Assembly: GCF_001458695.1 (NCBI RefSeq)
Contig: NZ_LN885086.1
Span: 3,090,001-3,122,000 of the forward strand
DNA from: Candidatus Nitrospira inopinata
GTDB lineage: Bacteria; Nitrospirota; Nitrospiria; Nitrospirales; Nitrospiraceae
DNA: 32,000 nt
Reading direction: 5' to 3'
Shown here: positions 15,771-32,000 of the stretch, piece by piece
Layout of the letters: each line of letters begins with the position of its first letter
Position numbering within the stretch: the first letter of the stretch is position 1
The notes under the pieces: generated by a model
What the model saw: only the letters and a program-made list of their open reading frames with translations
Databases searched by the model: none
What the model was told of the DNA's origin: nothing
Position numbers and translations under genes: made by a program

Positions 15771-17171
15771 CTACCGTTCCCGAAGACTCTCGTTGACGGC
15801 CTTGAGGAGAGGACTCAGCAGGTATTCGACGACGCGACGCTGTCCCGTCTTGATCTCCACCGTCACCGCCATACCGGCCGACAGGCGCACGGGTTTGCCG
15901 TCGACATTGATGGTGTCGCGATCCAGACTCACCCTCGTCGGATACACCAGTCCCACCTGCTCCACCGGCACCGCGTCATCGGACACGACCAAAACCCGTC
16001 CCGGGACCGTTCCATAGAGCGTGAACGGAAAGGTCGCGACCTTGACTTCGACCGGCTGTCCCTCTTTCACGAAGCCCACATCCTTGTTCTCGACTTGGGC
16101 CTCGACTTCGAGGGCATGTTCCTGCGGGACGATCAGCAACAGTTGCTGAGCCGGCGTCACGACCCCGCCGACCGTGTGCACGGCCAACTGTTGGACGACC
16201 CCGTCGATGGGCGCCGAGAGCCGCTGCAACTCGGCTTTTTGACCCGCCTTGGTGGCCTCCTGCGCCAGCGAGACGATCTTCGTTTCGAGCGCAGCGAGTT
16301 CCGCCTGACGCGCCTGCTGAAATTCGGCCACCGTCGCTCGATAGTGTTTTTCGGCCTCTTCGAGCGCCGCGAGATCCTGTTGCAGTTTCTTCCGCTGAAC
16401 GGCCAGCTCCTGCGTCCGCTCGATCCGCTGAGCCTCGGCTTGCAGAAAATCCATTCTCGTCGCCGCCTCATGTTCCAGCAACCGCTTGAGGGTCTCGGCC
16501 CGCTCCTCTTCGATCGGCACCATCGCCTCCAAACGACGAATCTGCTCCCTGGTCTGTTCGACCGCGGCCCGGCGTTGCTGAATCTGTTGTCGAGCGACCT
16601 CCACCTTCGCCTGATACTCGTCCAATTGATCGCGCAGCAATCGCCGCTGGAGCTGCGCGAACCGTTCATCCGCATCCGTCGGCGCCTCGAAGAAATCCCG
16701 GCCGGCCACCAACGCCCGCAGCCGCGCCGCCTCGACCTTCGCCGCCCGAAGCTCGTTGAGCGCACGATCGCGGTCGGCGCGGTTGAGCGTGGGATCGAGC
16801 TCGATCAGCACGTCGCCCTTTCTCACGGTCTGCCCGTCCTGCACGTGGATCGCCGCGATCACGCCCGTTTCATAGGGTTGAATGACCTTGGAATACCCGC
16901 TGGGAATGATCTTGCCTTGCGCCGTCGCGACGATGTCGATCCAGCCGAGGGCGGCCCAGAGCGACCCGGCGGCGAAGAGCGCCAAAATGGTCCAGAGAAT
17001 GGCGCGGCCGATGGGCGGAGGCGGGGCCTGCTCGATTTCCAAGACCGCCGGCAAAAACTCCATCGCCCGGCGGTCCGGCGTCCGCGCGGAAGCGGCGTCT
17101 CCCGACGGGCCTTCCCTCTCGGCCCTCCACGCCTCTTTCCATATCGCCCAATGACGGCCCAGCGTCGTCAT
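15771..17171 (-). CDS. HlyD-family type I secretion periplasmic adaptor
   Basis: N-terminal FLPAVLEIEQAPPPPIGR followed by one TM helix, a lipoyl-like domain (GKIIPSGYSKVIQPYETGVI), a long coiled coil, and a C-terminal beta-barrel ending LLSPL. Confidence 0.92.
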   Translation of the reverse strand: MTTLGRHWAIWKEAWRAEREGPSGDAASARTPDRRAMEFLPAVLEIEQAPPPPIGRAILWTILALFAAGSLWAALGWIDIVATAQGKIIPSGYSKVIQPYETGVIAAIHVQDGQTVRKGDVLIELDPTLNRADRDRALNELRAAKVEAARLRALVAGRDFFEAPTDADERFAQLQRRLLRDQLDEYQAKVEVARQQIQQRRAAVEQTREQIRRLEAMVPIEEERAETLKRLLEHEAATRMDFLQAEAQRIERTQELAVQRKKLQQDLAALEEAEKHYRATVAEFQQARQAELAALETKIVSLAQEATKAGQKAELQRLSAPIDGVVQQLAVHTVGGVVTPAQQLLLIVPQEHALEVEAQVENKDVGFVKEGQPVEVKVATFPFTLYGTVPGRVLVVSDDAVPVEQVGLVYPTRVSLDRDTINVDGKPVRLSAGMAVTVEIKTGQRRVVEYLLSPLLKAVNESLRER

Positions 17172-17174
17172 GCG

Positions 17175-19358
17175 TCAACCTCCGTATCCTCCGGCCACCC
17201 TGGTTTGGTAGGCGTGGAGCCTGGCGTACAACCCGCCGGCCCGCAGCAATTCGTCATGAGAACCTTGCTCGATGATTTCTCCCCGCTCGACGACGTAGAT
17301 CCGGTGGGCTGGCCGCACCGTGCTCAACCGGTGGGCGATGATGATCACCGTTCGCCCCTTGGCGATCAGCGCCGTGTTGCGCTGGATGACGGCTTCGGAT
17401 TCATAGTCCAGGGCGCTGGTCGCTTCGTCGAAAATAAGGATGCGCGGATCCGCAATCAACGCCCGCGCGATCGCGATCCGCTGGCGCTGTCCGCCGGACA
17501 GCGAACAGCCCTGTTCGCCGATCACCGTGTCGTATCCCTCCGGCAACTCCAGAATGAATTCGTGCGCCCCGGCCAGCTTTGCGGCCTGAATCACCCGCTC
17601 CATGGACGAGCCGGGATCGGTCAGCGCGATATTGTCGCGCACCGATCGGTTGAAGAGAAAGTTCTCCTGCAACACCACGCCGACGTGCCGGCGCAACCAG
17701 GCCGGATCGACCTGCGCCAAGTCCACGCCGTCCACCAGCACGCGGCCCCGCTCCGGCACGTAGAGCCGTTGAATCAATTTCGCGATCGTGCTCTTCCCGG
17801 ACCCGGATCGCCCCACCAAGCCGACCACCTGCCCCGGCTCCACGACGAACGAAACTTTGCGCAGCACCTCCGGCCCGTCAGGCCGATAGCGGAACGTCAC
17901 ATCTTCGAACGAGACGCGTCCCGCCACGCGAGGCAACGTCGTCCGATTCGGATTGTAGGACGGCTCCGGCTGGGCGTTGAGCACGTCGCCCAACCGTTGC
18001 ACGGAAATCCCCACCTGCTGAAACTCCTGCCACAGGTTCACGAGCCGCAACAATGGTCCCGTCACTTGCGCCGCCAGCATGTTGAAGGCGATCAACTGCC
18101 CGATGCTGAGCTCGCCCCCGATGACCCGATAGGCGCCGACCCAGAGAATGGCCACCGTCGTGAGTTTTTGGACGGCGGTCGCCGCCTGTCCGGCGATCGT
18201 AATCAAGTTGGTCGCGCGGAAACTCGCCCGCACGTACCCGGCCAACTGCTCGTCCCACCGCCGCTGCAACGGAGGCTCGACGGCCATCGCCTTCACGGTC
18301 TGGATGCCGGTGACCGTTTCCACGAGAAACGCCTGGTTCTCCGCTCCCCGATTGAACTTCTCGTGCAACCGGGCTCGGATGGCCGGCGTGATGACGAGAG
18401 ACAGCCCGGCATAGAAAGGCAACGATGCAGCCACGACCAGCGTGAGCATCGGACTGTACAGCCACATCACGGCGAGAAAGACGGCCATGAAAAACAGGTC
18501 GAGCACCACCGTGACCGAGTTGCTCGTCAGAAACTGGCGGATGTGCTCCAGCTCGCGGACGCGGGCCACCGTGTCGCCGACCCGCCGCGCCTCGAAGTAG
18601 GCGAGCGGCAGCGCCAAGATGTGGCGGAACAGTTGCGCGCCGAGCCCCACGTCGATGCGGTTCGTCGTATGGGCGAAGAGGTAGGTGCGGAGGCCGCCGA
18701 GGACCGCCTCGAAGATCACGAGCGCGACCATGCCGATCGCGAGCACGTGGAGCGTCGTGAACCCCCTGTGCACCAGCACCTTGTCGATCACGACCTGCGT
18801 GAACAGCGGAGTCAGCAGACCGAACAGTTGAAGAACAAACGAAGCGACCAGCACCTCGCCGAGCAACTTTCGATATTTGACGATGGCGGGGATGAACCAA
18901 GCGAAGTCGAACTTCAGATCCTGCGGACGCAGATGGGCCCGTTTCGTAAAGAGCAGCACTTCGCCGCTCCAAAGCGCCTCGAACCGGTCGCGGGACAGGA
19001 CCAGCGGACGCGCCTCGACCGGGTCCTGCACCAACACCTTCTGTTCGTCGGCCTTGGCCAAGACCAGGTAACGGCCGTCGGCCCGCCGGACCATGGCGGG
19101 AAGCGGAAGAGTCGGCAACTTGTCCCACCTGACCGTTATGCGGCCCGCCTTGAGCCCCAAATGTTTCGCGGCGCGCACGAGATCCGTCGGAGACAGAGGC
19201 TCGTTCAACCGCGCGAACTGATGGCGCAGTTGCGACGCGTCGGCGGGCAGGTCGTAGAACCGAGCGAGAATCAGCAGACAGAGCAACCCGGTGTCCGCGA
19301 CCGCCGAAGACGGCTGGGATGAATCAGACGGAGAAGCGGCGTTGGCGTCATCCGGCAT
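17175..19358 (-). CDS. HlyB-family type I secretion ABC transporter (C39-like domain + TMD + NBD)
   Basis: Close by-eye match to E. coli HlyB (KFDFAWFIPAIVKYRK, VIDKVLVHRGFTTL, FEARRVGDTVARVRELE). Walker A GRSGSGKST, signature LSGGQRQR, Walker B ILIFDEATSALD. In the N-terminal C39-like domain, the residue aligning with the catalytic Cys is Thr (ADTGLL versus HlyB IDYGLY). Confidence 0.92.
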   Translation of the reverse strand: MPDDANAASPSDSSQPSSAVADTGLLCLLILARFYDLPADASQLRHQFARLNEPLSPTDLVRAAKHLGLKAGRITVRWDKLPTLPLPAMVRRADGRYLVLAKADEQKVLVQDPVEARPLVLSRDRFEALWSGEVLLFTKRAHLRPQDLKFDFAWFIPAIVKYRKLLGEVLVASFVLQLFGLLTPLFTQVVIDKVLVHRGFTTLHVLAIGMVALVIFEAVLGGLRTYLFAHTTNRIDVGLGAQLFRHILALPLAYFEARRVGDTVARVRELEHIRQFLTSNSVTVVLDLFFMAVFLAVMWLYSPMLTLVVAASLPFYAGLSLVITPAIRARLHEKFNRGAENQAFLVETVTGIQTVKAMAVEPPLQRRWDEQLAGYVRASFRATNLITIAGQAATAVQKLTTVAILWVGAYRVIGGELSIGQLIAFNMLAAQVTGPLLRLVNLWQEFQQVGISVQRLGDVLNAQPEPSYNPNRTTLPRVAGRVSFEDVTFRYRPDGPEVLRKVSFVVEPGQVVGLVGRSGSGKSTIAKLIQRLYVPERGRVLVDGVDLAQVDPAWLRRHVGVVLQENFLFNRSVRDNIALTDPGSSMERVIQAAKLAGAHEFILELPEGYDTVIGEQGCSLSGGQRQRIAIARALIADPRILIFDEATSALDYESEAVIQRNTALIAKGRTVIIIAHRLSTVRPAHRIYVVERGEIIEQGSHDELLRAGGLYARLHAYQTRVAGGYGG

Positions 19359-19415
19359 GGGTCCATCATAGCCTGAATTCCGTGAGAGAAAAACGGCTTC
19401 TCATTTTATGATTTT

Positions 19416-19925
19416 TTGCTCCTGCCGGACGATGGGAAGCGGCATGAGATCATCGAGGGAGATCTCTTCGTGACGCTCTCTCCTATAACCCGCCACCAAC
19501 TCATCATCGGACGGTTCCTTCATCGCCTGACGACGTATCGAGAAACCCATCCAGTCGGCATGGTCTTTACCGCTCCATACGATGTCGTGCTCAGTGAAAC
19601 CGATATCGTTCAACCCGATCTGCTCCTTGCGTTGCAGACAGGCCGTGCCGTCATGACCGAGAAGAACCTCCAGGGGCCGCCCGACTTGATCCTCGAAGTG
19701 CTGTCGCCAAGCACCGCGGCTCGTGACCGCGAATTGAAACGCAAACGATACGAACACTTCGGCGTGCGGAAGTATTGGCCGATCGACCCGGATGCCAACA
19801 GCCTTGATATGTTGGCATTGCAGGACGGGCACTATGCGCATGTCGGCCGGACAATACGCCCGGCCGAATGTGCGTCAATCCTCCGACCCGATCTCGTGTC
19901 AGACCTTGGCTCCCTCCTGCAGTAA
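19416..19925 (+). CDS. Uma2 family (DUF820) putative endonuclease, copy 2, with TTG start / clipped N-terminus
   Basis: LLPDDGKRHEIIEGD, VQPDLLL and PDLILEVLSPSTAARDRELKRKRYEHFGVRKYWPIDP parallel copy 1. Homology (FSFYDF) continues upstream of the only available start (TTG 19416), up to an in-frame TGA at 19383. Confidence 0.75.
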   Translation: MLLPDDGKRHEIIEGDLFVTLSPITRHQLIIGRFLHRLTTYRETHPVGMVFTAPYDVVLSETDIVQPDLLLALQTGRAVMTEKNLQGPPDLILEVLSPSTAARDRELKRKRYEHFGVRKYWPIDPDANSLDMLALQDGHYAHVGRTIRPAECASILRPDLVSDLGSLLQ

Positions 19926-20014
19926 CCGACTCCCCCTTCCCAACCGTTTACCTCTTACCTCGCTTTTCTTATTTTCTTTCTCATTCTTCTCTGTGCCGTT
20001 CACGTGTCATATCT

Positions 20015-23000
20015 TCATGCTTGCCAATGCGCGGCGAGGATCGCCTGAAACTGAGCCTGGTGCCCGCCGGTGCCGGCGCCGGTGGCCGCCGCCTCCCAGG
20101 CGAGGCCGGTGTCGGTCGTAAAGGTCGCCATGGCTTGGAGAAGCTGATGGACCTGCGCGGCGTGCAGCACCTGGCCCCCGGCTTCGAGGGTCTCGACCTG
20201 GTTATCCGGCCCGCGGAACCAGTCCCGGATCGTCACCGAATCCCGGCCGCCGGCCACGAGCACGCGCAGGTCGTCGGCCTGCCGACTCAGGATGAGGTCG
20301 GAGGGGCCACGGTCGCCTTCGAACACCAGCCGATCCGCCGTGCCCCCACGCTCGACGATCACGTCGCGGCCGTCGCCCGGCGCGACGCGATAGGTGTCGT
20401 TGCCCCGCCCGCCCACCAGATAGTCGTCCCCCCCGCGTCCGATCAACACATTGTCGCCGTCATTGCCCTGGAGCACGTTGCCCAACTCGTTGCCGACGCC
20501 GGTCAGGGTGTCCGTGCCCAGGAGGATCAGATCTTCCACGTGCGCGCCCAGGGTATAGTCGATCGTGGCTCGGACCGTCTCGAGTCCGCCGGCGTCGGTC
20601 TCGATGACCTGATCGTCGGGATGATCGACCACATAGGTATCGTGGCCCGGGCCGCCGGTCAGGGTGTCGGCCCCGGGACCGCCGTCCAGATAGTCATCGC
20701 CGGGGCCGCCCAGCAGGGTATCGGCGCCCGCGCCGCCCTCCAGCCGGTCATGGCCCCGGCCGCCGGTGAGCCGATCGTCGCCGGCCTGCCCGAGCAGGTG
20801 ATCAGGGCCCGCCCCGCCGGTGAGCCGATCGGGCCCCTCGGTGCCGACCCGCGGCGGCCGGAGCCTGGGAGAAGGGGCCAGGCCCGTGCCGTTCGCCCGT
20901 GCCGCGGCGCTCAGCCGCGCCGCCGCCGCCGGCACGGCGCCGGCCGCGATGGCGATCACTTCGATGTCGGTCGCGGCAATGGTTGGACGGGTGGTCAGCG
21001 TGGCAATCTGGACGGGGGCCGCGGCTCCGGTCCCGTCGGGATCGTAGAAGAGGTCCCCCGTGGTGGTGTTGTAGAGGATCCGCTGCGCGGCACTGTCCGC
21101 GCTGGTCACCCCGGCCCCGCTGCGCAAGGCTTGCACGGACACCGTGCCTAGCGGCAGGGCGCGAAAGATGGCCTGGCTCAAGACGATTCGGTCGGCGGCC
21201 GGTTGAAAATCGGTGATCTCCTCGATGTTGGTTGCGGCCGCAAGCGGCGCATACAAGACGAACTGATCGTTGCCCGCCCCGCCGGTGAGCCGATCATGCC
21301 CCGTGCCGCCCCAGAGTTGGTCGTCGCCCGTGCCCCCGTCGAGCACGTCGTGCCCCGCCCCGCCAAAGAGCCGGTCGTTGCCCGCCCCGCCCCGCACCAG
21401 ATCGCTCCCGCCTCTGCCGTCCAGCAGGTTGTGCCCGCTGTTGCCCTGGAGCAGGTTGCCACTGGCGTTGCCGACGCCGGTCAAATCCTGGTCTTCCCCA
21501 GGCGGCCGGTCGGTCAGGATGAGATCCTCAAGCGTAGGCCCCAGGGTGAACGAGAGACTGGCCAAGACGGTGTCGGTGCCCCCCACGCCGGTCTCGACGA
21601 TCTTGTCGCCCGCGTGATCCACGACATAGGTGTCGCTCCCGTTGCCGCCGGTCAGGGTGTCGGCCCCGGAGCCGCCGTCCAGATAGTCATCGCCGGGGCC
21701 GCCCAGCAGGGTATCGGCGCCCGCGCCGCCCACGAGAAGATCCGCCCCGGGCCCGCCGGTCAGCACGTCGTTGCCGCCCGCGCCATCCACCGTGAGGAAC
21801 GAATGGGCCCCCACAAAGAGCCGGTCGGGCCCCTCGGTGCCGGTCACGGTCAGCCCCACCGGCGCGCCGGTCGCATCATACCGCTGGGCATAGACGCCCC
21901 GGCCGGAGCCGTCCTGGCCATTCGACGTCCAGGCCACGACGAAGCCCCCATCCGCGAGAGCCGTGACGGTCGGCTGGGACTGACTATCGGCCGTGACGGT
22001 GTTGACCCGAAATTCCGCCCCCACTGGTTGGCCGCCGGCATTGTACCGCTGGGCATAGATGCCAGAGCCGGAGCCGTCCTGGCCAACGGATGTCCAGGCC
22101 ACGACGAAGCCCCCATCCGCCAGGGCCGTGATGGTGGGCTCGAACTGACTATTGGCCGTGACGGTGTTGACCTGAAATTCCGCCCCCACCGGTTGGCCGC
22201 CGGCATTGTACCGCTGGGCATAGATGCCACCAACGGAGCCGTCCTGGCCATTCGACGTCCAGGCCACGACGAAGCCCCCATCCGCGAGAGCCGTGACGGT
22301 CGGCTGGGACTGACTATCGGCCGTGACGGTGTTGACCCGAAATTCCGCCCCCACTGGTTGGCCGCCGGCATTGTACCGCTGGGCATAGATGCCAGAGCCG
22401 GAGCCGTCCTGGCCAACGGATGTCCAGGCCACGACGAAGCCCCCATCCGCCAGGGCCGTGATGGTGGGCTCGAACTGACTATTGGCCGTGACGGTGTTGA
22501 CCTGAAATTCCGCCCCCACCGGTTGGCCGCCGGCATTGTACCGCTGGGCATAGATGCCACCAACGGAGCCGTCCTGGCCATTCGACGTCCAGGCCACGAC
22601 GAAGCCCCCATCCGCGAGAGCCGTGACGGTCGGCTGGGACTGACTATCGGCCGTGACGGTGTTGACCCGAAATTCCGCCCCCACTGGTTGGCCGCCGGCA
22701 TTGTACCGCTGGGCATAGACGCCCAAGCTGCTGGGAGTGGAGCCGTCCTGGCCGAATGACGTCCAGGTCACGACGAAGCCCCCGTCGGCGAGAGCCGTGA
22801 CGGTGGGGTCGAACTGATCGTTGGCCGTGACGGTGTTGACCCGAAACTCCGCCCCCACCGGCCGGCCGCCGGCATTGTACCGCTGGGCATAGATGCCACC
22901 AACGGAGCCGTCCTGGCCGAATGACGACCAGGCCACGACGAAGCCCCCGTCCGCCAGGGCCGTGACGGTCGGCTGGTCCTGACCACTGGCCGTGACGGTG

Positions 23001-23293
23001 TTGACCCGAACTTCTCCGCCCGTGACGGTGAGCCGAGTATCGCCGAACCGCAGCTCCTCGATCCCGCGCAGTCGGTCCCGCCCCTCGTCGCCGTCGGCCC
23101 CGTTGCGATCCGTCACCGTGAGCCAGCCCCCCTCGGTGCCCAAGAGATAGCCCTCCGCCACGCCGCCGTAGAGCGCGAGGTCCCGTCCCTCCCCGCCCTC
23201 CAGCTCGTCGTCGCCGCCCCGCCCCGTCAAGACATCGTCTTCGCTCGTGCCCCGCACCCGATCAGAGCCGTTTGTGCCTACAATGATCGCCAT
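20015..23293 (-). CDS. Large RTX-type calcium-binding protein P1 (1092 aa): N-terminal RTX repeats, 7 x 55-aa repeats, two RTX blocks, HCBP-related-like C-terminal module
   Basis: Many GGxGxDxL nonapeptides. There is no signal peptide, and SD AGGAGGG lies before ATG 23293. It lies ~650 bp upstream of the T1SS genes on the same strand. Confidence 0.9.
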   Translation of the reverse strand: MAIIVGTNGSDRVRGTSEDDVLTGRGGDDELEGGEGRDLALYGGVAEGYLLGTEGGWLTVTDRNGADGDEGRDRLRGIEELRFGDTRLTVTGGEVRVNTVTASGQDQPTVTALADGGFVVAWSSFGQDGSVGGIYAQRYNAGGRPVGAEFRVNTVTANDQFDPTVTALADGGFVVTWTSFGQDGSTPSSLGVYAQRYNAGGQPVGAEFRVNTVTADSQSQPTVTALADGGFVVAWTSNGQDGSVGGIYAQRYNAGGQPVGAEFQVNTVTANSQFEPTITALADGGFVVAWTSVGQDGSGSGIYAQRYNAGGQPVGAEFRVNTVTADSQSQPTVTALADGGFVVAWTSNGQDGSVGGIYAQRYNAGGQPVGAEFQVNTVTANSQFEPTITALADGGFVVAWTSVGQDGSGSGIYAQRYNAGGQPVGAEFRVNTVTADSQSQPTVTALADGGFVVAWTSNGQDGSGRGVYAQRYDATGAPVGLTVTGTEGPDRLFVGAHSFLTVDGAGGNDVLTGGPGADLLVGGAGADTLLGGPGDDYLDGGSGADTLTGGNGSDTYVVDHAGDKIVETGVGGTDTVLASLSFTLGPTLEDLILTDRPPGEDQDLTGVGNASGNLLQGNSGHNLLDGRGGSDLVRGGAGNDRLFGGAGHDVLDGGTGDDQLWGGTGHDRLTGGAGNDQFVLYAPLAAATNIEEITDFQPAADRIVLSQAIFRALPLGTVSVQALRSGAGVTSADSAAQRILYNTTTGDLFYDPDGTGAAAPVQIATLTTRPTIAATDIEVIAIAAGAVPAAAARLSAAARANGTGLAPSPRLRPPRVGTEGPDRLTGGAGPDHLLGQAGDDRLTGGRGHDRLEGGAGADTLLGGPGDDYLDGGPGADTLTGGPGHDTYVVDHPDDQVIETDAGGLETVRATIDYTLGAHVEDLILLGTDTLTGVGNELGNVLQGNDGDNVLIGRGGDDYLVGGRGNDTYRVAPGDGRDVIVERGGTADRLVFEGDRGPSDLILSRQADDLRVLVAGGRDSVTIRDWFRGPDNQVETLEAGGQVLHAAQVHQLLQAMATFTTDTGLAWEAAATGAGTGGHQAQFQAILAAHWQA
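21853..23014 (-). repeat. Seven tandem 165-bp (55-aa) coding repeats in P1
   Basis: Consensus unit VNTVTAxSQxxPTVTALADGGFVVAWTSxGQDGSxxGIYAQRYNAGGQPVGAEFR. Seven VNTVTA units were counted, and one unit carries a 2-aa insertion. Confidence 0.85.
21905..22719 (-). repeat. 815 bp of perfectly periodic DNA (330-bp period, 2.47 copies) inside the P1 repeat array
   Basis: 21905-22389 is base-for-base identical to 22235-22719, checked line by line. The first mismatches are at 21904/22234 and 22390/22720. Confidence 0.9.
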
Positions 23294-23575
23294 GGGACCC
23301 TCCTGTGTGTGTGAGAAGAAGAGTGGTGGCTGCTGATTCAGTGTTCTGTCGGGAATGGCTGGTTTTTGTGCGGAACTATAGGGTGTTCACACGGCGATCC
23401 ACAACCCTACCAAAGGATAGTGGTCGCTCACGCCAGAGGGGAGTCGAACGAAGACAATCACAAAGACAATGCCGGATGGCCGGTCCGGGGACGACGAGAA
23501 GGGAGCATGCCCAGGGGTCGCTCCCCCGTCATCCCCCTGGGCCAGAGATGCGATGCACCGTGGTTTGCTGGATCG

Positions 23576-26167
23576 TCACGCCCCCTCACTGCCTGCGCCG
23601 GTCCAATGCGCGGCGAGGATCGCCTGAAACTGAGCCTGTTGCCCGCCGGTGCCGGCGCCGGCGGCCGCCGCCTCCCAGGAGAGGCCGGTGTCGGTCGTAA
23701 ATTGCACCATGGCCTGGATGAGCGACTCCACCTGCGTGTGGAGGAGGAGGTGCCTCGTGCCGGTCTCGATCGTCTCAACTTGATTGGCGGCGCCGACGTA
23801 CCAGTCCCGGATCGTCACCTGATCGGACGTTCTCCGCAAGGCCAACCGCAGGTCGTCGGCCTGTCGGCTGAGAATCACATCGACCGGAGCAGTCCCTCTG
23901 CCAAACAGCACCTTGTCGGCGGCCCCGTCGGTGTCTTGGATCACATCCTGTCCATCGCCGCGCCCGAACACATAGGTGTCGCTGCCCGCGCCGCCTATGA
24001 GTACATCGTTCCCCTGACCGCCGATCAAGACGTCATTGCCGACCCGGCCGTCGAGCCGGTCGTTGCCGGCCAACCCGATGAGGAGATTGTCGGCGCCATT
24101 GCCGATCAGTTCGTTGTCCAGAGCGTTCCCCGTCAGGTTCAGCTTCGTGTCCGCCGTGGAGCCGGCATCCAGTCGCTCCAGATTGGCTCCCAACGTGAGC
24201 GTCGTCGCCCTCATCAGATCGCTCACAATCCCTCGAAGGATGACCTGATCCGTTCCCTGATTCCGCCCCTCGGTGATCGTGTCTTCAAGCTTGACGGTGG
24301 CCGCCACCCCTTCACCTGCTCGGACAAGATCCACGAGGTAGGTGTCGTCCCCGGCCCCGCCGATCAGCCGATCCCTGCCGGCGCCGCCGTCCAAGGTATC
24401 ATCCCCCGCGCCGCCGCTCAGGGTGTCGGTGCCCGCGCCGCCCTCGAGCACATTGTTGCCGCTGTTGCCGATCAGGATATTATTCAGCTCATTGCCCGTC
24501 CCGGCGAGGTCGGCTGTCCCCGTCAAGGTGAGATGCTCCACGTTCGGCCCGAGCGTGAAGTCCACGGCGCTCAACACCAGATCGATCCCGCCCGCCGCCC
24601 CGGCCAGCGACTCCGTCACGGTATCGCCCAGACTGTCCACGATGTAGGTATCATTGCCGGCTCCCCCCTCCATCGCGTCATCGCCCACGCCGCCATCAAG
24701 CCGATCGTTCCCCCCGTTGCCGATGAGGGTATCGTTGCCCGCGCCGCCTTCGAGCACGTTGGCCGCGCCGTTGCCGATGATGACGTTGTTCAACTCGTTG
24801 CCCGTGCCATTGATGGGCTTAGTGCCGGTGAGGGTCAAATTCTCGAAATTCGGCCCCAAGGCATGGGTGATGGAAGATTCGACCAGGTCGGTGCCGGCGC
24901 CGGGCTCTTCCACGAGCACATCCGTCCCCTGGCCGATCACGTAGGTGTCGTCACCCGGCCCGCCGCTCAACGTGTCGTTCCCCGGCCCGCCGATCAGCCG
25001 ATCCCTGCCCGCGCCGCCGTTCAAGGTGTCATGGCCGGCATTGCCGACTAACACGTCGTCGAGATCCGTACCGGTGAGCACGTTGTCTCCTGCATTGCCG
25101 GTGATGGACAGCCCGTTGCTTACAGCGGACGCATCCACGTTCAGGGCGGTCTTCCCGGTCGTGACGCCCGCGGCGGTTCCAATCACGACACTTTCGATCT
25201 CCGTGACGCCCGAAGCCAAGACCAATGTCTGGCCCGGCACGACGCTCGCGAACCGGATCGTATCATCGCCGGCCCCACCCGCAATGACCTCCCCCGAACC
25301 GTGATCGGCGGCGTTTCTGATGACCACCGCGTCGTTTCCGTCTCCGCCCAGAATCGCGTCGTCGCCCGCTCCACCGTCAAGGACGTCGTCGCCGCTTCCC
25401 CCGCCCAGTGTGTCGCCATTGGGTCCGCCGATCGTGATGACGTCATTGCCAGGGCCGGAGAGAAAGCTCATGCCGGCGGCGCTGTTGTTCGTATAAATAA
25501 TGGTGTCGTTGCCGGTCATCTGAGCACCGACCACGGAAAACAGCTCACTCACCGTGGTGATCGTGCTCAAGGCACTATAGGGAATCGAGAGGCTTCTCAT
25601 CATGATCGTATCCGTGCCGGACATGATCGCAATCTGAGTGACGGTTCCACTGAGGTTGAAATCGACGTCCGCCACCAACGTACCCCTGATGGTGACGGTG
25701 GTGGAACCGAACGTTCCCCGTAATTCCGTAATCCGCCCCGACACGACGCCGCCGGCTTGGTTGACCACAATCTGGCCGAGCATCGTGAATTGAAAACTCG
25801 GCACTCCAATGGTGAAGCTCTTGACAACTTCGTTACCGACCCCGTCTAAGGTACCGGAAAATCTCAGCAACTCTCCCGTCGATGGATTGTTGAAGACAAA
25901 CGAATTGATGATCGGGTCGACATTGCGACCGAAGAACTGTGACCCCTTGGCGACGAGGGTCGCCCCGGCATTCGCCGATGGAGGAAGAAGTGTGATCGAA
26001 ACAGACGTCGAGGTAGCCGAGTTAACTATGAAATACCCCGCTGCAATGTCGGCTGAGATCTGTTCAAACCGACTAAAGAAGGTATTGAACTGCGTTTCGA
26101 CGTCGAAAAGAGCCCCTACATTCACCGTTGACCAATCGGTTGTCGTGGAACCAGTAATCAGCGCCAT
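23576..26167 (-). CDS. RTX-type calcium-binding protein P2 (863 aa): shared N-terminal module, RTX blocks, HCBP-related-like C-terminal module
   Basis: SD GGAGGTG lies before ATG 26167. The N-terminus MALITGSTTTDW has no signal peptide. It has numerous GGxGxD repeats and the C-terminal DKVLFGRG...VTIRDWY...[19 protein letters not shown]...FQAILAAHW. Confidence 0.9.
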   Translation of the reverse strand: MALITGSTTTDWSTVNVGALFDVETQFNTFFSRFEQISADIAAGYFIVNSATSTSVSITLLPPSANAGATLVAKGSQFFGRNVDPIINSFVFNNPSTGELLRFSGTLDGVGNEVVKSFTIGVPSFQFTMLGQIVVNQAGGVVSGRITELRGTFGSTTVTIRGTLVADVDFNLSGTVTQIAIMSGTDTIMMRSLSIPYSALSTITTVSELFSVVGAQMTGNDTIIYTNNSAAGMSFLSGPGNDVITIGGPNGDTLGGGSGDDVLDGGAGDDAILGGDGNDAVVIRNAADHGSGEVIAGGAGDDTIRFASVVPGQTLVLASGVTEIESVVIGTAAGVTTGKTALNVDASAVSNGLSITGNAGDNVLTGTDLDDVLVGNAGHDTLNGGAGRDRLIGGPGNDTLSGGPGDDTYVIGQGTDVLVEEPGAGTDLVESSITHALGPNFENLTLTGTKPINGTGNELNNVIIGNGAANVLEGGAGNDTLIGNGGNDRLDGGVGDDAMEGGAGNDTYIVDSLGDTVTESLAGAAGGIDLVLSAVDFTLGPNVEHLTLTGTADLAGTGNELNNILIGNSGNNVLEGGAGTDTLSGGAGDDTLDGGAGRDRLIGGAGDDTYLVDLVRAGEGVAATVKLEDTITEGRNQGTDQVILRGIVSDLMRATTLTLGANLERLDAGSTADTKLNLTGNALDNELIGNGADNLLIGLAGNDRLDGRVGNDVLIGGQGNDVLIGGAGSDTYVFGRGDGQDVIQDTDGAADKVLFGRGTAPVDVILSRQADDLRLALRRTSDQVTIRDWYVGAANQVETIETGTRHLLLHTQVESLIQAMVQFTTDTGLSWEAAAAGAGTGGQQAQFQAILAAHWTGAGSEGA
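24399..24998 (-). repeat. 600-bp block shared with P3 (partner 26884-27483)
   Basis: At a constant offset of 2485 nt, 24399-24745 equals 26884-27230 (347 bp, 100%) and 24794-24998 equals 27279-27483 (205 bp, 100%). The two runs are separated by a 48-bp diverged patch. Confidence 0.9.
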
Positions 26168-26447
26168 CTTGCACCTCCGTTCAACTCATCGCCCGCCCGA
26201 AGGGGGAAGAGATAACACACAGAAGGGCAGCCGAGCAATTCGGGTGCTGTGCGCCGCACAAGGGCAATCGATCGGTCGTGATGGATTTACGACTCTTCTC
26301 GTCGAATGGGCTTACCGGCGGGAACGATCAGAGTGGCATGAAGCGCCAGACACCGGCAGATTGACTGGCGCAAGAAGCGACAATTGCGATTGAAGTCTGC
26401 GAAGTCTGGAGCACCGTACTCCGGGCTTTTCTCGCGACATCCCATCG

Positions 26448-28988
26448 TTACTGCCAATTCGCAGCGAGAATATTTTGGAAGTCCGTCTGTTGTTGAGCGG
26501 TCCCGGCGCCGCCTGCCAGCGCTTCCCAGGAGAGGCCGGTCTGTCTGGTGAAGGTCGCCATGGCCTGGAGAAGCTGATTGACCTGGGTACTGAGCAAAAC
26601 CTGGCCGCCGCCCGCCTCGATCGTTTCGATGCGGTTGTTGGCGCTCGCGTACCAATTTCGAATCGTGACGTGATCCGATGTACCCTGGACCATGATCCGC
26701 AGGTCGTTGACACGCCGGCTGAGCACCAGATCGAACGGATCGATTCCACTGTCGAAAACAAGCCGGTCGGTCGTCCCGCCGCCGTCTTGAATCACATCTT
26801 GGCCGTCGCCGAGCCCGAACAGATAGGTGTCGTTCCCGCTGCCGCCGTTGAGCGTATCGTTGCCCGTGCCACCAGCAAGGATGTCATCCCCCGCGCCGCC
26901 GCTCAGGGTGTCGGTGCCCGCGCCGCCCTCGAGCACATTGTTGCCGCTGTTGCCGATCAGGATATTATTCAGCTCATTGCCCGTCCCGGCGAGGTCGGCT
27001 GTCCCCGTCAAGGTGAGATGCTCCACGTTCGGCCCGAGCGTGAAGTCCACGGCGCTCAACACCAGATCGATCCCGCCCGCCGCCCCGGCCAGCGACTCCG
27101 TCACGGTATCGCCCAGACTGTCCACGATGTAGGTATCATTGCCGGCTCCCCCCTCCATCGCGTCATCGCCCACGCCGCCATCAAGCCGATCGTTCCCCCC
27201 GTTGCCGATGAGGGTATCGTTGCCCGCGCCCCCGATCAGGATATTCGCCGCATTGTTCCCGATCAGCACGTTATCCAGCTCGTTGCCCGTGCCATTGATG
27301 GGCTTAGTGCCGGTGAGGGTCAAATTCTCGAAATTCGGCCCCAAGGCATGGGTGATGGAAGATTCGACCAGGTCGGTGCCGGCGCCGGGCTCTTCCACGA
27401 GCACATCCGTCCCCTGGCCGATCACGTAGGTGTCGTCACCCGGCCCGCCGCTCAACGTGTCGTTCCCCGGCCCGCCGATCAGCACGTCGTCCCCCGCGCC
27501 GCCGATGAGAACGTCGTGGCCGCGGGAACCGATGAGGACATTGTCCCCGGCGCCGCCAGTCGCCTCGACCACGCCGCCGAGCTTGGAGGCATCGAGGTTC
27601 TCAAAATTGCTCTGGACCGGCACGTCGAGCAGTCCCCCGATCGAGACCACTTGGTCCACCTGCGAGAGATCCACCAATACTCGTCGGTTGCCTGGCACGG
27701 CACCGACCAAGATCAGGGTATCGACACCAGTCCCCGCGTCGATCGTATCGACGTCGCCCGCCGTCACGAGCATTGTAATCCGGTCATGCCCCGCCCCGCC
27801 CAAGACGGCATCCTGCCCGCGACCTCCGTCCAACACGTCGTCGCCGTCGCCGCCATCGAGGGTATCGTTCCCTCGGGAGCCGATGAGGACATTGTCCCCG
27901 GCGCCGCCGGTCGCCGAGACAAACCCGACGATCCGAGAGGCATCGAGATGTTCCACATTGATTTGCGTCGGCCCATCCACCGCCCCGCCGATCGACACGA
28001 CTTGATCGGTCGTCGAGGATAGATTCACCACCACTTCCCGATCGCCGGGCACGGTGCCGGTCAAGACCAGTGTATCGATACCGGGCCCGGCGTTGATCGT
28101 GTCTGTGTTGCCTGGCGTCACGAGCATTATGATGCGATCGTTCCCTCCGCCGCCGATGATGGTATCCAGTCCTAATCCCCCGTCGAGCACATCGTCCCCG
28201 TCACCGCCGACCAATGTGTCGCCATGGGGGCCGAGAATCGTGATGCTGTCGTTCCCCGCGCCGCCGACGAACGTCATGCCGGCCCCGGAACGATTCGTAT
28301 AGGTGATGGCGTCGTTGCCGGGCATGTGGTTGCCGACGAATGCCAAGAGGTCTTCCACCGTCGCCAACGTATCGGCGGCCAACGCCGCTTCAATCCCATC
28401 CCATGAAAGAGAAAGGCCCGTCATGGTGATCGCGCCGCCGCCGGACACCACGGTGATGCCGGTGACCGTGCCGGCCATGCTCGCGCCGCTCAGATTACCC
28501 GAAAGACCGAAGGTCCCCCTGAAGGTGACCGTGGCGGAGCCCACCCTCGCAACCAACGACGTCAGGTTGCCGACATAGGCGCCACTGGTGAGAAAATTGT
28601 CGGGGATTTGGATAATGCCATTGACCGTTTCAAAAAAGCCGGATGAGCCGATTGTGGCCGAGGTCAGGATTTCCGTTCCTCCGTTGACGGTACCGGTCGC
28701 CCGAAGCACCTCGCCGCTGCCGTTGGCGGGGTTCTTAAAATCGATCGTTCTGATCACAGGAGCCGGGCCATCCAATCCGGAGCCGCTCAAGCTCAGCCGC
28801 CCTCCGAAACGCATATCGAGAACCAGGAGGGTCGAGCCGGGCGAGACGATGTCATAGTTGCCGCTGTAAAAAGCGGCCAGAAGCTGACGGACTCGCGACG
28901 CGAACGTATGGAAATGGCCGACAAAATCGACCCGACCGAGCGAAACGCCCGACCAATTGATCGTCGTGGACCCGGTGATGCGGGCCAT
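26448..28988 (-). CDS. RTX-type calcium-binding protein P3 (846 aa), paralogue of P2/P4
   Basis: N-terminus MARITGSTTINW. It has the same N-module, two ~95-aa internal modules (NDRIxMLVTxGxxDTIxAGxGxDTLxLxGxVPG...QVVSIGG...LDAS), RTX blocks, and the C-terminal DRLVFDSG...VTIRNWY...LQAMATFTRQTGLSWEA...ILAANWQ. Confidence 0.9.
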   Translation of the reverse strand: MARITGSTTINWSGVSLGRVDFVGHFHTFASRVRQLLAAFYSGNYDIVSPGSTLLVLDMRFGGRLSLSGSGLDGPAPVIRTIDFKNPANGSGEVLRATGTVNGGTEILTSATIGSSGFFETVNGIIQIPDNFLTSGAYVGNLTSLVARVGSATVTFRGTFGLSGNLSGASMAGTVTGITVVSGGGAITMTGLSLSWDGIEAALAADTLATVEDLLAFVGNHMPGNDAITYTNRSGAGMTFVGGAGNDSITILGPHGDTLVGGDGDDVLDGGLGLDTIIGGGGNDRIIMLVTPGNTDTINAGPGIDTLVLTGTVPGDREVVVNLSSTTDQVVSIGGAVDGPTQINVEHLDASRIVGFVSATGGAGDNVLIGSRGNDTLDGGDGDDVLDGGRGQDAVLGGAGHDRITMLVTAGDVDTIDAGTGVDTLILVGAVPGNRRVLVDLSQVDQVVSIGGLLDVPVQSNFENLDASKLGGVVEATGGAGDNVLIGSRGHDVLIGGAGDDVLIGGPGNDTLSGGPGDDTYVIGQGTDVLVEEPGAGTDLVESSITHALGPNFENLTLTGTKPINGTGNELDNVLIGNNAANILIGGAGNDTLIGNGGNDRLDGGVGDDAMEGGAGNDTYIVDSLGDTVTESLAGAAGGIDLVLSAVDFTLGPNVEHLTLTGTADLAGTGNELNNILIGNSGNNVLEGGAGTDTLSGGAGDDILAGGTGNDTLNGGSGNDTYLFGLGDGQDVIQDGGGTTDRLVFDSGIDPFDLVLSRRVNDLRIMVQGTSDHVTIRNWYASANNRIETIEAGGGQVLLSTQVNQLLQAMATFTRQTGLSWEALAGGAGTAQQQTDFQNILAANWQ
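26884..27483 (-). repeat. 600-bp block shared with P2 (partner 24399-24998)
   Basis: See the partner entry. The identity is exact apart from the patch at 27231-27278. Confidence 0.9.
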
Positions 28989-29127
28989 GGCAAATGGTCT
29001 CCTCTGGCAATCAGGCTGCGTCGAGACTCCGGCTCAGGCTGGTCTTGCTGACCTTGGCAGGCGAGAAACGCTCCGCTTCATCGAGCATTCCGGCTCAGAC
29101 CGTCTGGGCACGGTTCGCGATCCTCCC

Positions 29128-32000
29128 CTACACTCCCGCCGATTGCCAATTCGCGGCGAGGATGCCTTGGAACTGCGCCTGCTGTTGGGTCGTGCCACTC
29201 CCCCCCGCCGCCGCCTCCCAACTCAACCCCGTGTCGGTGGTGAACTGGGCCATGGCGTTGATGAGTTGTTGGACCTGTCCGCTCAGCAACACTTGCCCGT
29301 TGCCCGCTTGAAGAATGTCCACCCGATTGGAGGCGCTTCTATACCAGTGTTGAACCGTCACGTGGTCGGAGGTCCCGCGAATCGCCACGCGCAGGTCGTC
29401 GGCCTGCCGGCTGAGAATGAGATCCAGCGGATTGACCCCGCTGTTGAATTGCAATCGATCGGCGGTCCCGCTGCTGTCCTGAATCACATCTTGCCCGTCG
29501 CCGCGCCCGAACAGATAGATGTCGTTGCCCGCCCCGCTGATCAAAAGATCGTTGCCGCTTCCTCCTCCAAGAATGTCGTTGCCCGCGCCGCCGATCAACG
29601 TGTCGTTGCCGGCCCCGCCCATGAGCCGGTCATGCCCGTTCGATCCGATGATGTGATTGTCCCCCCCGCTGCCCGTCACCGTCACATAGCCGGTGATGCT
29701 TGAGGCGTCGAGATTTTCAAAACCGATCTGGACCAGAGTCTCCGCCACACCGCCGATCGATACGACGTGATCGCTCGTCGAAGAGAGGTTGACCACGACC
29801 TCCCCGTTGCCCGCCACGGCGCCGGTGAGGATCAACGTGTCGATGCCCGGGCCGGCATTGATGGTATCGACATTGCCAGCCGTCACGAGCATGGTGATCC
29901 GGTCATTGCCTCCTCCGCCGTTGACGATATCCTGCCCCGGTCCCCCGTCGAGCACGTCGTCGCCGTCGCCGCCATGAAGCGTGTCGTTCCCGGCGAGCCC
30001 CAGAAGCACGTTGTTGCCGCTGTTGCCGGTGAGGATATTGTCCAACCCATTGCCCGTGCCGTTGATGTTCGCCGTGCCCGTCAAGGTGAGATGCTCCACG
30101 TTCGGCCCCAGGGTAAAACTCACGGAACTCACGACCAGATCCACGCCTCCCGCCGATCCCGCCACCGTTTCGATCACCCTGTCCCCCACGTGGTCCACAA
30201 TGTAGGTATCGTCACCGGCTCCCCCCTCCATCCGGTCCGCTCCCGACCCGCCGTTGAGAGTGTTGTTTCCGCTGTTGCCGATCAACACGTTGTTCAACTC
30301 GTTGCCCGTGCCGTTGAGATTCGCCGTACCTATCAAGGTGAGATGCTCCACGTTCGGCCCCAGGGTAAAGCTCACGGAACTCACGACCAGATCCACGCCT
30401 CCCGCCGATCCCGCCACCGTTTCGATCACCTGGTCGCTCGCACTATCCACGATGTAGGTGTCGTTGCCCGCGCCGCCTTCCATCCGATCGGCTCCCAGCC
30501 CGCCGTCGAGCCGGTCGTTCCCCCCGTTGCCGATGAGGGTATCGTTGCCCGCGCCGCCTTCGAGCACGTTGGCCGCGCCGTTGCCGATGACGACGTTGTT
30601 CAGCTCGTTGCCTCGGCCGTTGATGGGCTTGGTGCCGGTGAGGGTCAAATTCTCGAAATTCGGCCCCAAGGCATGGGTGATCGAGGACTGCACCAAGTCG
30701 ATCCCTTCGCCGGATTGTTCTATGAGCTCGTCGGTTCCCTCGCCGATCACGTAGGTGTCGTTGCCGGAGCCGCCGACCAATGTGTCATTGCCGGGGCCGC
30801 CGATCAGCGTGTCATTCCCGGCGCCGCCGACCAACGTATCGTTCCCAGGCCCCCCGATCAACGTGTCATCGCCCGCGCCGCCATTGAGCGTGTCATTGCC
30901 GGCCATGCCATAAAGGGTGTTGGGACCGCCGTTACCGGTGATGACGTTGTTGAGTTCGTTGCCCCTGCCGATCAAGGCGCCGCCCGTCAATTCAAGATTT
31001 TCGAGATTGGCGCCCAGCGTATAATCGATCGGCGAAAATACCTTGTCGATCCCCGCATTCCGCCCTTCTCGGACGATGTCGCCGGGACTGTCCACTCGGT
31101 AAGTATCGTCGCCCAGTCCGCCGATCATGGTGTCGTTCCCGGTGCCGCCGTTGAGCACGTCGTTGCCGGGCGAGCCGATGAGGGTATTGTCCAGACTGTT
31201 GCCGGTCACGTTGACCGAGCCGACGACTCTCGAAGCGTCGAGATGTTCAAAATTGGCCTGCACCAGTCCGTCCGCCGCCCCGCCGATCGACACGACTTGA
31301 TCGGAGAGCGACAGGTTCACCACCACTTCCCCATTGCCGGGGACGGTGCCGGCCAAGATCAACGTATCGAAGCCCGGGCCGGCGTTGATCGTGTCCGTAT
31401 CACCGGGCGTGATCAGCATGGTGATGCGATCGTTGCCGTCCCCGCCGACGATCGTATCCTGCCCAGGCCCGCCGTCCAGCACGTCGTCGCCGTCGCCGCC
31501 GTTCAACGTGTCGCCGTGTGGGCCGCCGATGATGATCGTATCGTTGCCCGGCCCTCCATGGAAACTCATGCCGGCGCCGCTGTTGTTCGTATAAATAATG
31601 GCGTCGTTGCCGGTCATCCGATTGCCGATGTAGGTGAAGAGATCGTGGACCGTCGTCAGGGTGTCGTTGGCCAACGCGGCTTCAACGTCATCCCACGGCA
31701 GAGAAAGACCCGTCATGGTGATGGCGCTGCCGCCGTTGACCACGGCAATGGCGGTCACGGTGCCGGTGATGTCGGCGGCGCTCATGTTCCCCGAGAGACG
31801 GAACCTCCCGTTGAAGGTCACCGTCGTGGACCCGATCCTCGCCGCGAGCGACGTCAGAGTGCCCGTGTAGTTGCCGCTCGCGGCAATGAGCTGGATGGTG
31901 CCGTTCATCGTTTCAGAGAAGCCGGGGGAGCCGAGGGTGACGGCCGTGAGGGTTTCGATCCCGCCGTTAAAGGTGCCGACCGCGCGGATCACTTCGCCGC
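29128..32000 (-). CDS. RTX-type calcium-binding protein P4, 5'-truncated by the window edge
   Basis: More than 954 aa in the window. Residues at the window edge ([16 protein letters not shown]) align with P3 residues ~94-109, so about 90 aa of the N-terminus should lie beyond nt 32000. The C-terminal module is DRLQFNSG...VTVQHWY...[19 protein letters not shown]...[11 protein letters not shown]. Confidence 0.9.
30010..30500 (-). repeat. Internal ~252-bp (84-aa) tandem duplication in P4
   Basis: The core 30082-30178 versus 30334-30430 is 96/97 identical. It encodes [17 protein letters not shown]...[43 protein letters not shown] twice. Confidence 0.85.

Follow-up and report, generated by a model that had tools for sequence, protein, structure and literature searches.

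A chromosomal locus of Candidatus Nitrospira inopinata, a complete ammonia oxidiser and the only one known in pure culture, places four RTX genes next to a HlyB/HlyD-type transporter pair. This raises the question whether the four proteins are exported by that pair and what role they play outside the cell. Nitrospira play a key part in nitrification in soils, waters and treatment plants. They grow as tight aggregates, whose protein matrix is, to our knowledge, essentially uncharacterised. Literature searches returned no paper on these RTX and transporter genes, and public annotations describe the RTX proteins as “calcium-binding protein” or “Ca2+-binding RTX toxin-like protein.” We argue here that the locus is probably a type I secretion locus with non-toxin surface or matrix cargo, the four RTX proteins being its substrates.

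Within the window, i.e., the whole stretch of 32,000 nt that was analysed, hlyD, hlyB and the four RTX genes (P1 to P4) all lie on the minus strand, and their coordinates agree with the gene order and strand proposed in an initial annotation of this DNA. The hlyD-like gene (15771..17171, 466 aa) encodes a membrane-fusion (periplasmic adaptor) protein and starts 3 nt past the stop codon of the hlyB-like ABC transporter gene (17175..19358, 727 aa). Upstream follow P1 (20015..23293, 1092 aa, CUQ68180.1), P2 (23576..26167, 863 aa, CUQ68181.1) and P3 (26448..28988, 846 aa, CUQ68182.1), all assigned from their ORFs and Pfam matches, and the ORF of P4 (29128..32000), which runs off the window at its 5′ end. 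The complete P4 gene, as seen in L007, encodes 1047 aa and has the same N-terminal domain as P2 and P3. The array ends at four RTX genes and is bounded upstream by a PilZ gene; the gaps between the paralogues measure 139–282 nt and are not conserved. A putative endonuclease gene of the Uma2 family (19416..19925, plus strand; Pfam Uma2, E 3.3e-25) lies antisense in the 656-nt gap between P1 and hlyB. Since it parts the cargo genes from hlyB, co-transcription is not assured. Uma2 is missing at the matching position of the related loci (L011–L016), where a cargo gene leads directly to hlyB.

The transporter proved to be a HlyB type, as had been claimed. HlyB reached 1037.2 bits against TIGR01846 (cutoff 725.55) and aligned with E. 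coli HlyB (7sgr) across aa 21–718 (E 4e-260). Pfam placed a Peptidase_C39 domain at aa 21–141 (18936..19298, minus strand; E 1.7e-19), ABC_membrane at 169–436 and ABC_tran at 499–648. We read the active-site positions of the C39-like domain from alignments to the HlyB CLD (3zua) and PCAT1. The Cys position is taken by Thr23, already noticed in the initial annotation; its counterparts are Tyr9 in HlyB and, in PCAT1, the mutated catalytic Cys. The catalytic His is gone as well: Tyr97 stands opposite His83 of HlyB and the His of PCAT1. Judged from these alignments, the domain lacks both Cys and His and is catalytically inactive. The ATPase motifs are intact, with Walker A (GRSGSGKS, 516), LSGGQ (620), Walker B (ILIFDE, 640) and the H-loop (AHR, 675). 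HlyD scored 396.7 bits against TIGR01843 (cutoff 208.65), matched Pfam HlyD_3 and Biotin_lipoyl_2, and has a single N-terminal transmembrane segment (aa 57–75). The machinery is thus a classical, ordinary type I secretion system. Pfam gave no TolC/OEP match for any of the 17 largest ORFs in the window, nor did a scan of neighbouring genes at the related loci L011 and L016 detect TolC; the channel is therefore incomplete as seen here. The same scan of the window detected no HlyC, LapG/LapD, protease or lipase, which agrees with the earlier remark that the usual RTX accessory genes are absent.

The four RTX proteins have clear cargo features in common. Each holds 16–22 exact GGxGxD motifs and 8–12 stretches matching HemolysinCabind (PF00353, E 2e-47 to 4e-81), and the genes contain 27-nt tandem arrays. 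All four proteins are acidic (pI 4.05–4.21), lack Cys entirely and have just 1–7 Lys each. Neither a signal peptide nor an N-terminal hydrophobic segment was found in P1 to P4 (12-residue hydropathy maximum ≤1.0 within the first 46 aa), so that the description of the cargo as GGxGxD-rich and free of signal peptides is borne out. A hydrophobic pore-forming segment was likewise absent from all four (19-residue hydropathy maximum 1.4–1.7).

Furthermore, P1 to P4 end in a common C-terminal module of 127–134 aa including the last beta-roll turn, of which about 105–112 aa follow that turn. It lies on the minus strand at 20018..20398 in P1, where it comprises the last turn, PF06594 and a conserved tail ending in AAHWQA, and was delimited by alignment and PF06594 in P2 (23579..23980), P3 (26451..26831) and P4 (29131..29523). 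Pairwise identity among the four copies is 55–65%. The previously claimed module of about 106 aa is therefore real in all four proteins; it contains the known Pfam domain PF06594 (HCBP_related) and is not a new module. PF06594 scored 23.5–36.7 bits in the four tails, compared with a gathering score of 21.4, and spans just about 30 residues of the roughly 110-aa shared module. No model covered the tail that follows it (42 protein letters, not shown) or the passenger domains, and the RTX_C match of the tail remained below threshold. In other genomes the module is 49–64% identical and directly abuts hlyB.

The initial annotation had counted four differently decorated cargoes. The cargoes are less diverse in this respect than stated: there are two passenger types and not four, since P2, P3 and P4 share one N-terminal domain of about 235 aa (identity 42–66%). 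In P2 this domain covers aa 1–232 (25472..26167, minus strand; alignment and family search) and in P3 aa 1–235 (28284..28988, minus strand). Its family has 59 representatives among 1.84 billion proteins and begins at residue 1 in every case, on RTX proteins with any of three tail types. The domain is rare and centred on Nitrospirota; the copies known to date come mostly from relatives of Nitrospira. An AF2 model of the P3 domain, built from a 24-sequence alignment, reached a pLDDT of 89.6 and a pTM of 0.87 and predicts an all-beta hairpin sheet with three helices, in which no catalytic signature was seen. Foldseek searches with this model against PDB and BFVD gave no match at E ≤1e-3, and sequence searches of Pfam and PDB returned neither a described family nor a solved structure. 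Passengers that belong to well-characterised families would have spoken against the original proposal; no described family was matched.

It is conceivable, if rather doubtful, that the 235-aa domain is a new fold and a lineage-specific surface-retention or self-assembly module, which would tether the proteins to the outer membrane or polymerise as a microcolony scaffold without LapG/LapD. Dense microcolonies are typical of nitrifiers. The domain leaves the exporter last of all. No di-alanine cleavage motif conserved across P2 to P4 could be established: P3 and P4 have an EAALAAD stretch that P2 lacks.

P1 is built differently. A short N-terminal RTX part is followed by seven 55-aa repeats, an RTX block, a relic C-terminal module, an Ala-rich linker, a second RTX block and the PF06594 tail. 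The repeats (aa 97–484; 21842..23005, minus strand) were delimited by TRF, which reported a period of 165 nt in 6.8 copies and of 330 nt in 3.4 copies, and by the repeat register; their number varies between assemblies (7 vs. 5). More than 5000 homologues were retrieved, with a consensus of seven repeats, and in thousands of proteins the module is fused to T9SS sorting domains, SLH, Ig, cadherin, FG-GAP or fn3. Sequence searches of Pfam and PDB gave no match, with propeller hints below threshold only. The repeat module is propeller-like, widespread and undescribed. The internal relic (aa 651–779; 20957..21343, minus strand) is of the “DFxV” type of type I secretion C-terminal modules; it aligns end to end with the last 130 residues of the RTX protein P0149 (41% identity, E 8e-28) and weakly matches Peptidase_M10_C. 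By its sequence, P1 is a chimera that retains, inside the protein, what remains of a second secretion tail.

Comparison with relatives places the array in a wider context. Five Nitrospiraceae/Nitrospirota MAG loci (L011, L012, L013, L014, and L016) have cargo directly upstream of a hlyB/hlyD pair that is 81–83% (hlyB) and 71–74% (hlyD) identical to that of N. inopinata. Their cargo genes carry the same N-terminal domain, the same C-terminal module, or both, and some loci encode He_PIG giants of 2000–2600 aa with Ig repeats and the same tail. Cargo number and kind differ among the five loci, and the C-terminal module adjoins hlyB/hlyD in the relatives without exception; the comparison suggested earlier, of co-occurrence and copy number in relatives, hence came out positive. 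Independent assemblies also contain the four-gene array, with intact ORFs and conserved lengths except for the P1 repeat number. Since they carry the array and the order of cargo, hlyB and hlyD recurs in the five MAG loci, the array is not an assembly artefact, a concern voiced at the outset. Within the array, a 347-nt block is identical in P2 (24399..24745, minus strand) and P3 (26884–27230), the product of gene conversion. Duplication, module shuffling, gene conversion and the swapping of tails seem to drive the evolution of the array, and P1 appears to have added the locus-type tail to an older secretion tail that it already had.

The identity of the transporter, the cargo features, the conserved synteny and passengers without any match are established directly, and from them we infer the following path. 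Export would run through a channel made up of HlyB with its inactive C39-like domain, the HlyD adaptor and a TolC-like outer-membrane component encoded elsewhere. Its substrates are most likely the four RTX proteins encoded upstream in the same orientation, an assignment that held up on cargo features and synteny. They would be recognised through their C-terminal region, consisting of the RTX beta-roll, the PF06594 domain and a conserved helical tail of about 45 aa, threaded out unfolded with the C-terminus first and without a signal peptide, and folded outside once the GGxGxD repeats bind calcium. The cargo would be non-catalytic, beta-rich binding or structural proteins, with P1 displaying its seven-repeat propeller-like module, common in extracellular proteins, and P2 to P4 the rare 235-aa domain. 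A role as surface or matrix components that aid Nitrospira aggregates and biofilms is most likely, as suggested by the absence of catalytic and toxin domains and by the domain company of the P1 repeats.

Toxins are the best-known substrates of HlyB-type exporters such as the one that adjoins the array, and P1 to P4 might be exported as antagonists of bacteria or eukaryotes, their N-terminal domains being new toxic or membrane-active modules. Diversifying paralogues with gene conversion are also found in polymorphic toxin loci, and a domain without known fold neighbour might possess an activity. We nevertheless regard such a function as quite improbable. The proteins lack a hydrophobic pore-forming segment and are very poor in Lys, the window has no HlyC acyltransferase, the gaps between the paralogues contain no small immunity-like gene, neither Pfam nor NCBIfam revealed a toxin domain, and the predicted all-beta fold is devoid of a catalytic signature. 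Pore-forming RTX toxins (HlyA/CyaA/LktA) were rejected as a class, as NF033943 (cutoff 1000) yielded 165–209 bits and covered only model positions ~688–895 of 930, its C-terminal part. Serralysins, lipases and glycanases were dismissed as well: the NCBIfam models for serralysin, ZapA, PueAB and EglC stayed below their cutoffs and matched on the repeats only, and no catalytic Pfam domain was present. A LapA-type retained adhesin did not fit either, given that the window has no LapG/LapD, BIg repeats or retention module with a di-Ala site.

Calcium-dependent S-layers built from RTX proteins are exemplified by RsaA of Caulobacter and the RTX S-layer protein of Synechocystis, and P1 to P4 could form an S-layer-like coat rather than act as adhesins or matrix proteins. 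Acidic, Cys-free RTX proteins of 850–1090 aa with a dedicated type I exporter would suit this function, as would several abundant paralogues in one locus and a strictly terminal N-terminal domain, as expected of an anchoring domain. Four co-resident paralogues and the He_PIG giants of sister genomes, however, differ from the usual single dominant gene, neither Pfam nor PDB showed a resemblance in sequence to known S-layer proteins, and literature searches with other aims returned no report of a Nitrospira S-layer, nor do we know of one. A coat of this kind thus appears improbable to us. Finally, the adjacent pair might not export the products of the RTX genes, or some of these genes might be decaying pseudo-paralogues, in which case the adjacency would be historical and uncoupled by the Uma2 insertion. 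The antisense gene with its 656-nt gap and the differing P1 repeat number point in this direction. Against it stand the four intact ORFs with lengths kept between assemblies apart from the P1 repeats, and the C-terminal module, which is kept across paralogues and abuts hlyB in other genomes. Moreover, the apparent secondary gain of the locus-type tail by P1 suggests that the tail was selected to fit the transporter. We consider an uncoupled array very improbable, and retain the export of all four proteins, as non-toxin surface or matrix cargo, as the most likely reading.

With this locus, the complete ammonia oxidiser available in pure culture gains a defined and conserved set of proteins that are candidates for secreted surface or matrix components, and a confident structural model now exists for a rare domain without known relative. 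The general understanding of type I secretion is unchanged by it. It does provide what looks like a clear example of type I cargo that stays matched to one transporter even as it diversifies through shuffled modules, gene conversion and exchanged tails.

Among known systems, E. coli HlyCABD-TolC resembles the locus in transporter architecture (C39-like, transmembrane and nucleotide-binding domains with a HlyD-type adaptor), in the order of cargo, B and D, and in a GGxGxD substrate without signal peptide. TolC of E. coli is not encoded at the haemolysin locus, and the Nitrospira locus has no TolC gene either. In contrast to the E. coli system, it lacks hlyC and has four cargo genes instead of one, the cargo has no hydrophobic pore-forming region and almost no Lys, Tyr97 stands where HlyB keeps His83, and the tail carries PF06594 with a sub-threshold RTX_C match. 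LapA-type giant type I adhesins have an N-terminal retention module under LapG/LapD control. Like them, the Nitrospira proteins are type I RTX proteins with a folded functional domain at the N-terminus, last to leave the cell, and their sister-genome relatives include Ig-repeat (He_PIG) giants with the same tail. P1 to P4 are, however, much smaller and without BIg repeats, no LapG/LapD homologue is encoded in the window, and no solved structure is detectably similar to the N-terminal domain of P2 to P4. With the RTX “calcium-binding proteins” of unknown function that define PF06594 (HCBP_related) they share a tail that passes the gathering score in all four cases. In Rhizobium leguminosarum, PrsDE is one type I transporter with many substrates (Rap adhesins, Ply glycanases). 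PrsD, unlike the Nitrospira transporter, is of the class that has no N-terminal C39-like domain; the Nitrospira substrates are clustered with the transporter genes, unlike those of PrsDE, and their passengers match neither NCBIfam EglC (115–237 bits vs. 700, on repeats only) nor the Pfam cadherin families. As in PrsDE, a single ABC/adaptor pair probably exports a number of calcium-binding extracellular proteins that are not toxins and are involved in surface or biofilm biology.

The RTX genes and their putative transporter lie on the minus strand in the 5' to 3' order P4, P3, P2, P1, hlyB and hlyD. P4 starts the array and is cut by the window (29128 to window end; 1047 aa in L007, a locus from an N. 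inopinata assembly). It is followed by P3 (26448-28988, 846 aa), P2 (23576-26167, 863 aa), P1 (20015-23293, 1092 aa), hlyB (17175-19358, 727 aa) and hlyD (15771-17171, 466 aa), which starts 3 nt after hlyB. HlyB, P1, P2 and P3 exactly match CUQ68178, CUQ68180, CUQ68181 and CUQ68182 from the 3,295,117-bp Ca. Nitrospira inopinata genome. Draft or metagenome contigs of this organism match the window at 99.6-99.7% identity, and two others match it at 100%.

P2, P3 and P4 share a domain of about 235 aa that begins at Met1 (42-66% identity), and P1 carries a different passenger. Thus, where the initial annotation saw four differently decorated cargoes, there are only two kinds of passenger. The P2-P4 domain had no sequence match in Pfam, NCBIfam or PDB. 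A word-indexed protein search with the P3 domain returned 0 matches, P3 itself included. We took this as candidate saturation and not as absence, because HMMER, run exhaustively against 1.84 billion representative proteins, then recovered 59 members, and only these. In every member of full length, the domain occupies the N-terminus from residue 1, with RTX blocks after it. Three tail types occur among them, namely PF06594/AANWQ as found here, 'DFxV' and ...LLIDTD.... A scan by sequence patterns, which covered one genome per species, was built on a 5-sequence alignment and could therefore miss distant members, found nine loci with the domain, all in Nitrospirota or Nitrospiraceae MAGs. Single-sequence AF2 modeling was useless (pLDDT 39), and we used a run on a 24-sequence alignment instead (pLDDT 89.6, pTM 0.87). 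The predicted fold comprises an N-terminal strand, a long helix, around eleven long antiparallel strands arranged in hairpins and two short helices. Foldseek searches with this model gave no match at E<=1e-3 in PDB or a viral model library, the best TM-scores being around 0.2.

The passenger of P1 consists of seven tandem 55-aa repeats (aa 97-484, window 21842-23005), for which TRF reported a period of 165 nt and a super-period of 330 nt. The repeats had no real Pfam or PDB match and gave only sub-threshold hints of a beta-propeller. Matches to CopC were artefacts of summed repeat scores, with no single stretch passing, and were dismissed. Homologues of the module number in the thousands and are spread across phyla; many are stand-alone proteins of about 415 aa, and the consensus of the homologues also contains seven repeats. 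In other proteins the module is joined to RTX repeats, T9SS sorting domains, SLH, Ig, cadherin, FG-GAP and fn3 domains, and hence it is extracellular.

Downstream of the repeats, P1 aa 651-779 (window 20957-21343) match, over their whole length, the very C-terminus of a 'DFxV'-tailed RTX protein (41% identity, E 8e-28). An Ala-rich linker follows, and then about 300 aa of RTX repeats and PF06594 tail of the type common to this locus; the last ~215 nt of this tail are 81% identical to P2. Judged from these alignments, P1 is a chimera with two predicted secretion tails in tandem, an internal 'DFxV'-type end and the locus-type end. On the simplest reading, a complete RTX propeller protein would have acquired a tail matching this transporter.

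The repeat number of P1 differs between assemblies. The closed genome encodes seven repeats (1092 aa), while four draft or metagenome assemblies (L001-L004) encode five (982 aa), a difference of 330 nt. Alternate repeats are 96% identical at the DNA level, and the contig of GCA_041694755.1 stops inside P1, at window 20868. The five-repeat form is likely a short-read collapse, and true variation in repeat number is a less probable but still admissible explanation.

Beyond their passengers, the four proteins have much in common. As the initial annotation had stated, they are rich in GGxGxD, with 16-22 exact motifs each and strong PF00353 matches, and they lack signal peptides, since none has an N-terminal hydrophobic stretch. 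Internal hydrophobic domains were likewise not found in P1-P4. Their pI is 4.05-4.2, and they contain zero Cys and 1-7 Lys each. This scarcity of Lys is extreme (1, 7, 3 and 2 residues in proteins of 846-1092 aa), and Arg takes its place (K+R = 27-58). Against NCBIfam models for RTX haemolysins, serralysins, esterases and glycanases all four stayed far below the cutoffs and matched in the repeats or post-repeat region only. The common C-terminal end noticed earlier was recovered in all of them as a module of 127-134 aa that includes the last beta-roll turn (55-65% pairwise identity). PF06594 was above threshold in 4/4 cargoes and is followed by a conserved tail (39 residues, not shown). A word-indexed search with this module returned only 12 short fragments, which says little on its distribution.

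With 1037 bits, HlyB exceeded the TIGR01846 cutoff of 726, and the whole protein could be aligned with E. coli HlyB (7sgr, E 4e-260); HlyD, at 397 bits, exceeded the TIGR01843 cutoff of 209. Walker A, signature motif, Walker B and H-loop of HlyB are all intact. Thr23 of its C39-like domain aligns with Tyr9 of E. coli HlyB and the catalytic Cys of the PCAT1 peptidase, and Tyr97 with the catalytic His position (His83 in E. coli HlyB). Therefore, the Thr previously assigned to the Cys position is confirmed, and degeneration has gone further in this domain than in that of E. coli HlyB. A scan of the window's 17 largest ORFs found no member of the TolC, HlyC, LapG/LapD, protease or lipase families, and the earlier reading holds for these ORFs.

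An array of similar genes might be an assembly artefact. This was rejected, because outside one block the paralogues share no more than 72-81% DNA identity, and the same four genes recur in the same order in independent assemblies. The exceptional block spans 684 nt of 94% identity between P2 and P3 and contains a 347-nt identical stretch (24399-24745 in P2, 26884-27230 in P3). Since P2 and P3 are much more diverged outside this block, their sequences indicate a recent gene conversion. P4 contains a tandem duplication (30010-30510) of 252 nt (84 aa) with 85% identity; the duplicated unit is a module of the RTX blocks and is found again in P2 and P3.

Related loci connect the cargo with the transporter. 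In five Nitrospiraceae/Nitrospirota MAG loci (L011, L012, L013, L014 and L016) the gene immediately preceding the hlyB/hlyD homologues (81-83% and 71-74% identity, respectively) encodes the N-terminal domain and/or the same tail. Co-occurrence of cargo and hlyBD and copy-number variation among relatives, which the initial annotation had put forward as a test, were thus both observed: cargo sets vary between genomes, and a further locus, L010, comprises four or more tandem genes. L011 (1508-9250) and L016 (3059-9208) encode RTX giants of 2000-2600 aa beside the same hlyB/hlyD; these carry He_PIG Ig domains and three copies of PF06594 and end in the C-terminal tail seen in P1-P4. None of the five loci has a Uma2 gene between cargo and hlyB. 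In the gap at 19359-20014, such a gene (19416-19925, plus strand, Pfam E 3e-25) separates P1 and hlyB in N. inopinata only. It overlaps a minus-strand ORF (19401-19841, 146 aa) that is called as a gene in some drafts and is probably spurious. A second Uma2 gene lies at 3165-3725.

The cargo array ends at four genes. Upstream of P4 are a PilZ-domain gene, a cytochrome c gene and queC; downstream of hlyD are malQ, a histidine kinase and a sigma-54 response regulator. A link of the array to this two-component pair is unsupported, since sigma-54 promoter consensus matches were at chance level (35 found, 30 expected) and the pair is not conserved beside related loci. A conserved element was not found in the upstream regions of P1, P2 and P3. 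The PilZ-domain gene (114 aa, L007 5895-6239, just past the window end) has the same orientation as P4, about 480 nt upstream of it, and possibly encodes a c-di-GMP receptor; the L011 gene at the equivalent position (521-1495) has no Pfam match. Elsewhere in the window, an ORF with a DpnII/MboI-type restriction endonuclease domain (8597-9832, 411 aa) is intact, where drafts call only fragments of 104-114 aa. Positions 1-1000 show an unusual AT skew (-0.32) and long overlapping ORFs on both strands, upstream of or within a LexA-like HTH/S24 peptidase gene (518-1714).

Sequence evidence establishes an exporter of the HlyB class whose C39-like domain is inactive, the adaptor of this exporter, four RTX proteins with the full set of type I substrate hallmarks, and a conserved synteny. 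By analogy with the HlyA system, unfolded chains would leave C-terminus first through HlyB/HlyD and an unlinked TolC, and calcium would drive folding outside the cell. The cargoes are free of toxin or enzyme features, the P1 repeats keep extracellular company, the P2-P4 domain is strictly N-terminal and Nitrospira has an aggregate lifestyle. These points weakly suggest a surface or matrix role for P1-P4; roles as toxins or S-layer, or genes uncoupled from the transporter, are less well supported. Literature searches returned nothing relevant on these genes, Nitrospira RTX proteins or Nitrospira type I secretion. Loci of RTX paralogues with unassigned function are common in environmental bacteria, and the secretion machinery described here is classical. 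New are the rare domain at the N-terminus of P2-P4, which to date centres on Nitrospirota and is confidently modelled with no structural neighbour, the chimeric P1 with its two predicted secretion tails, and the link to a model comammox organism.
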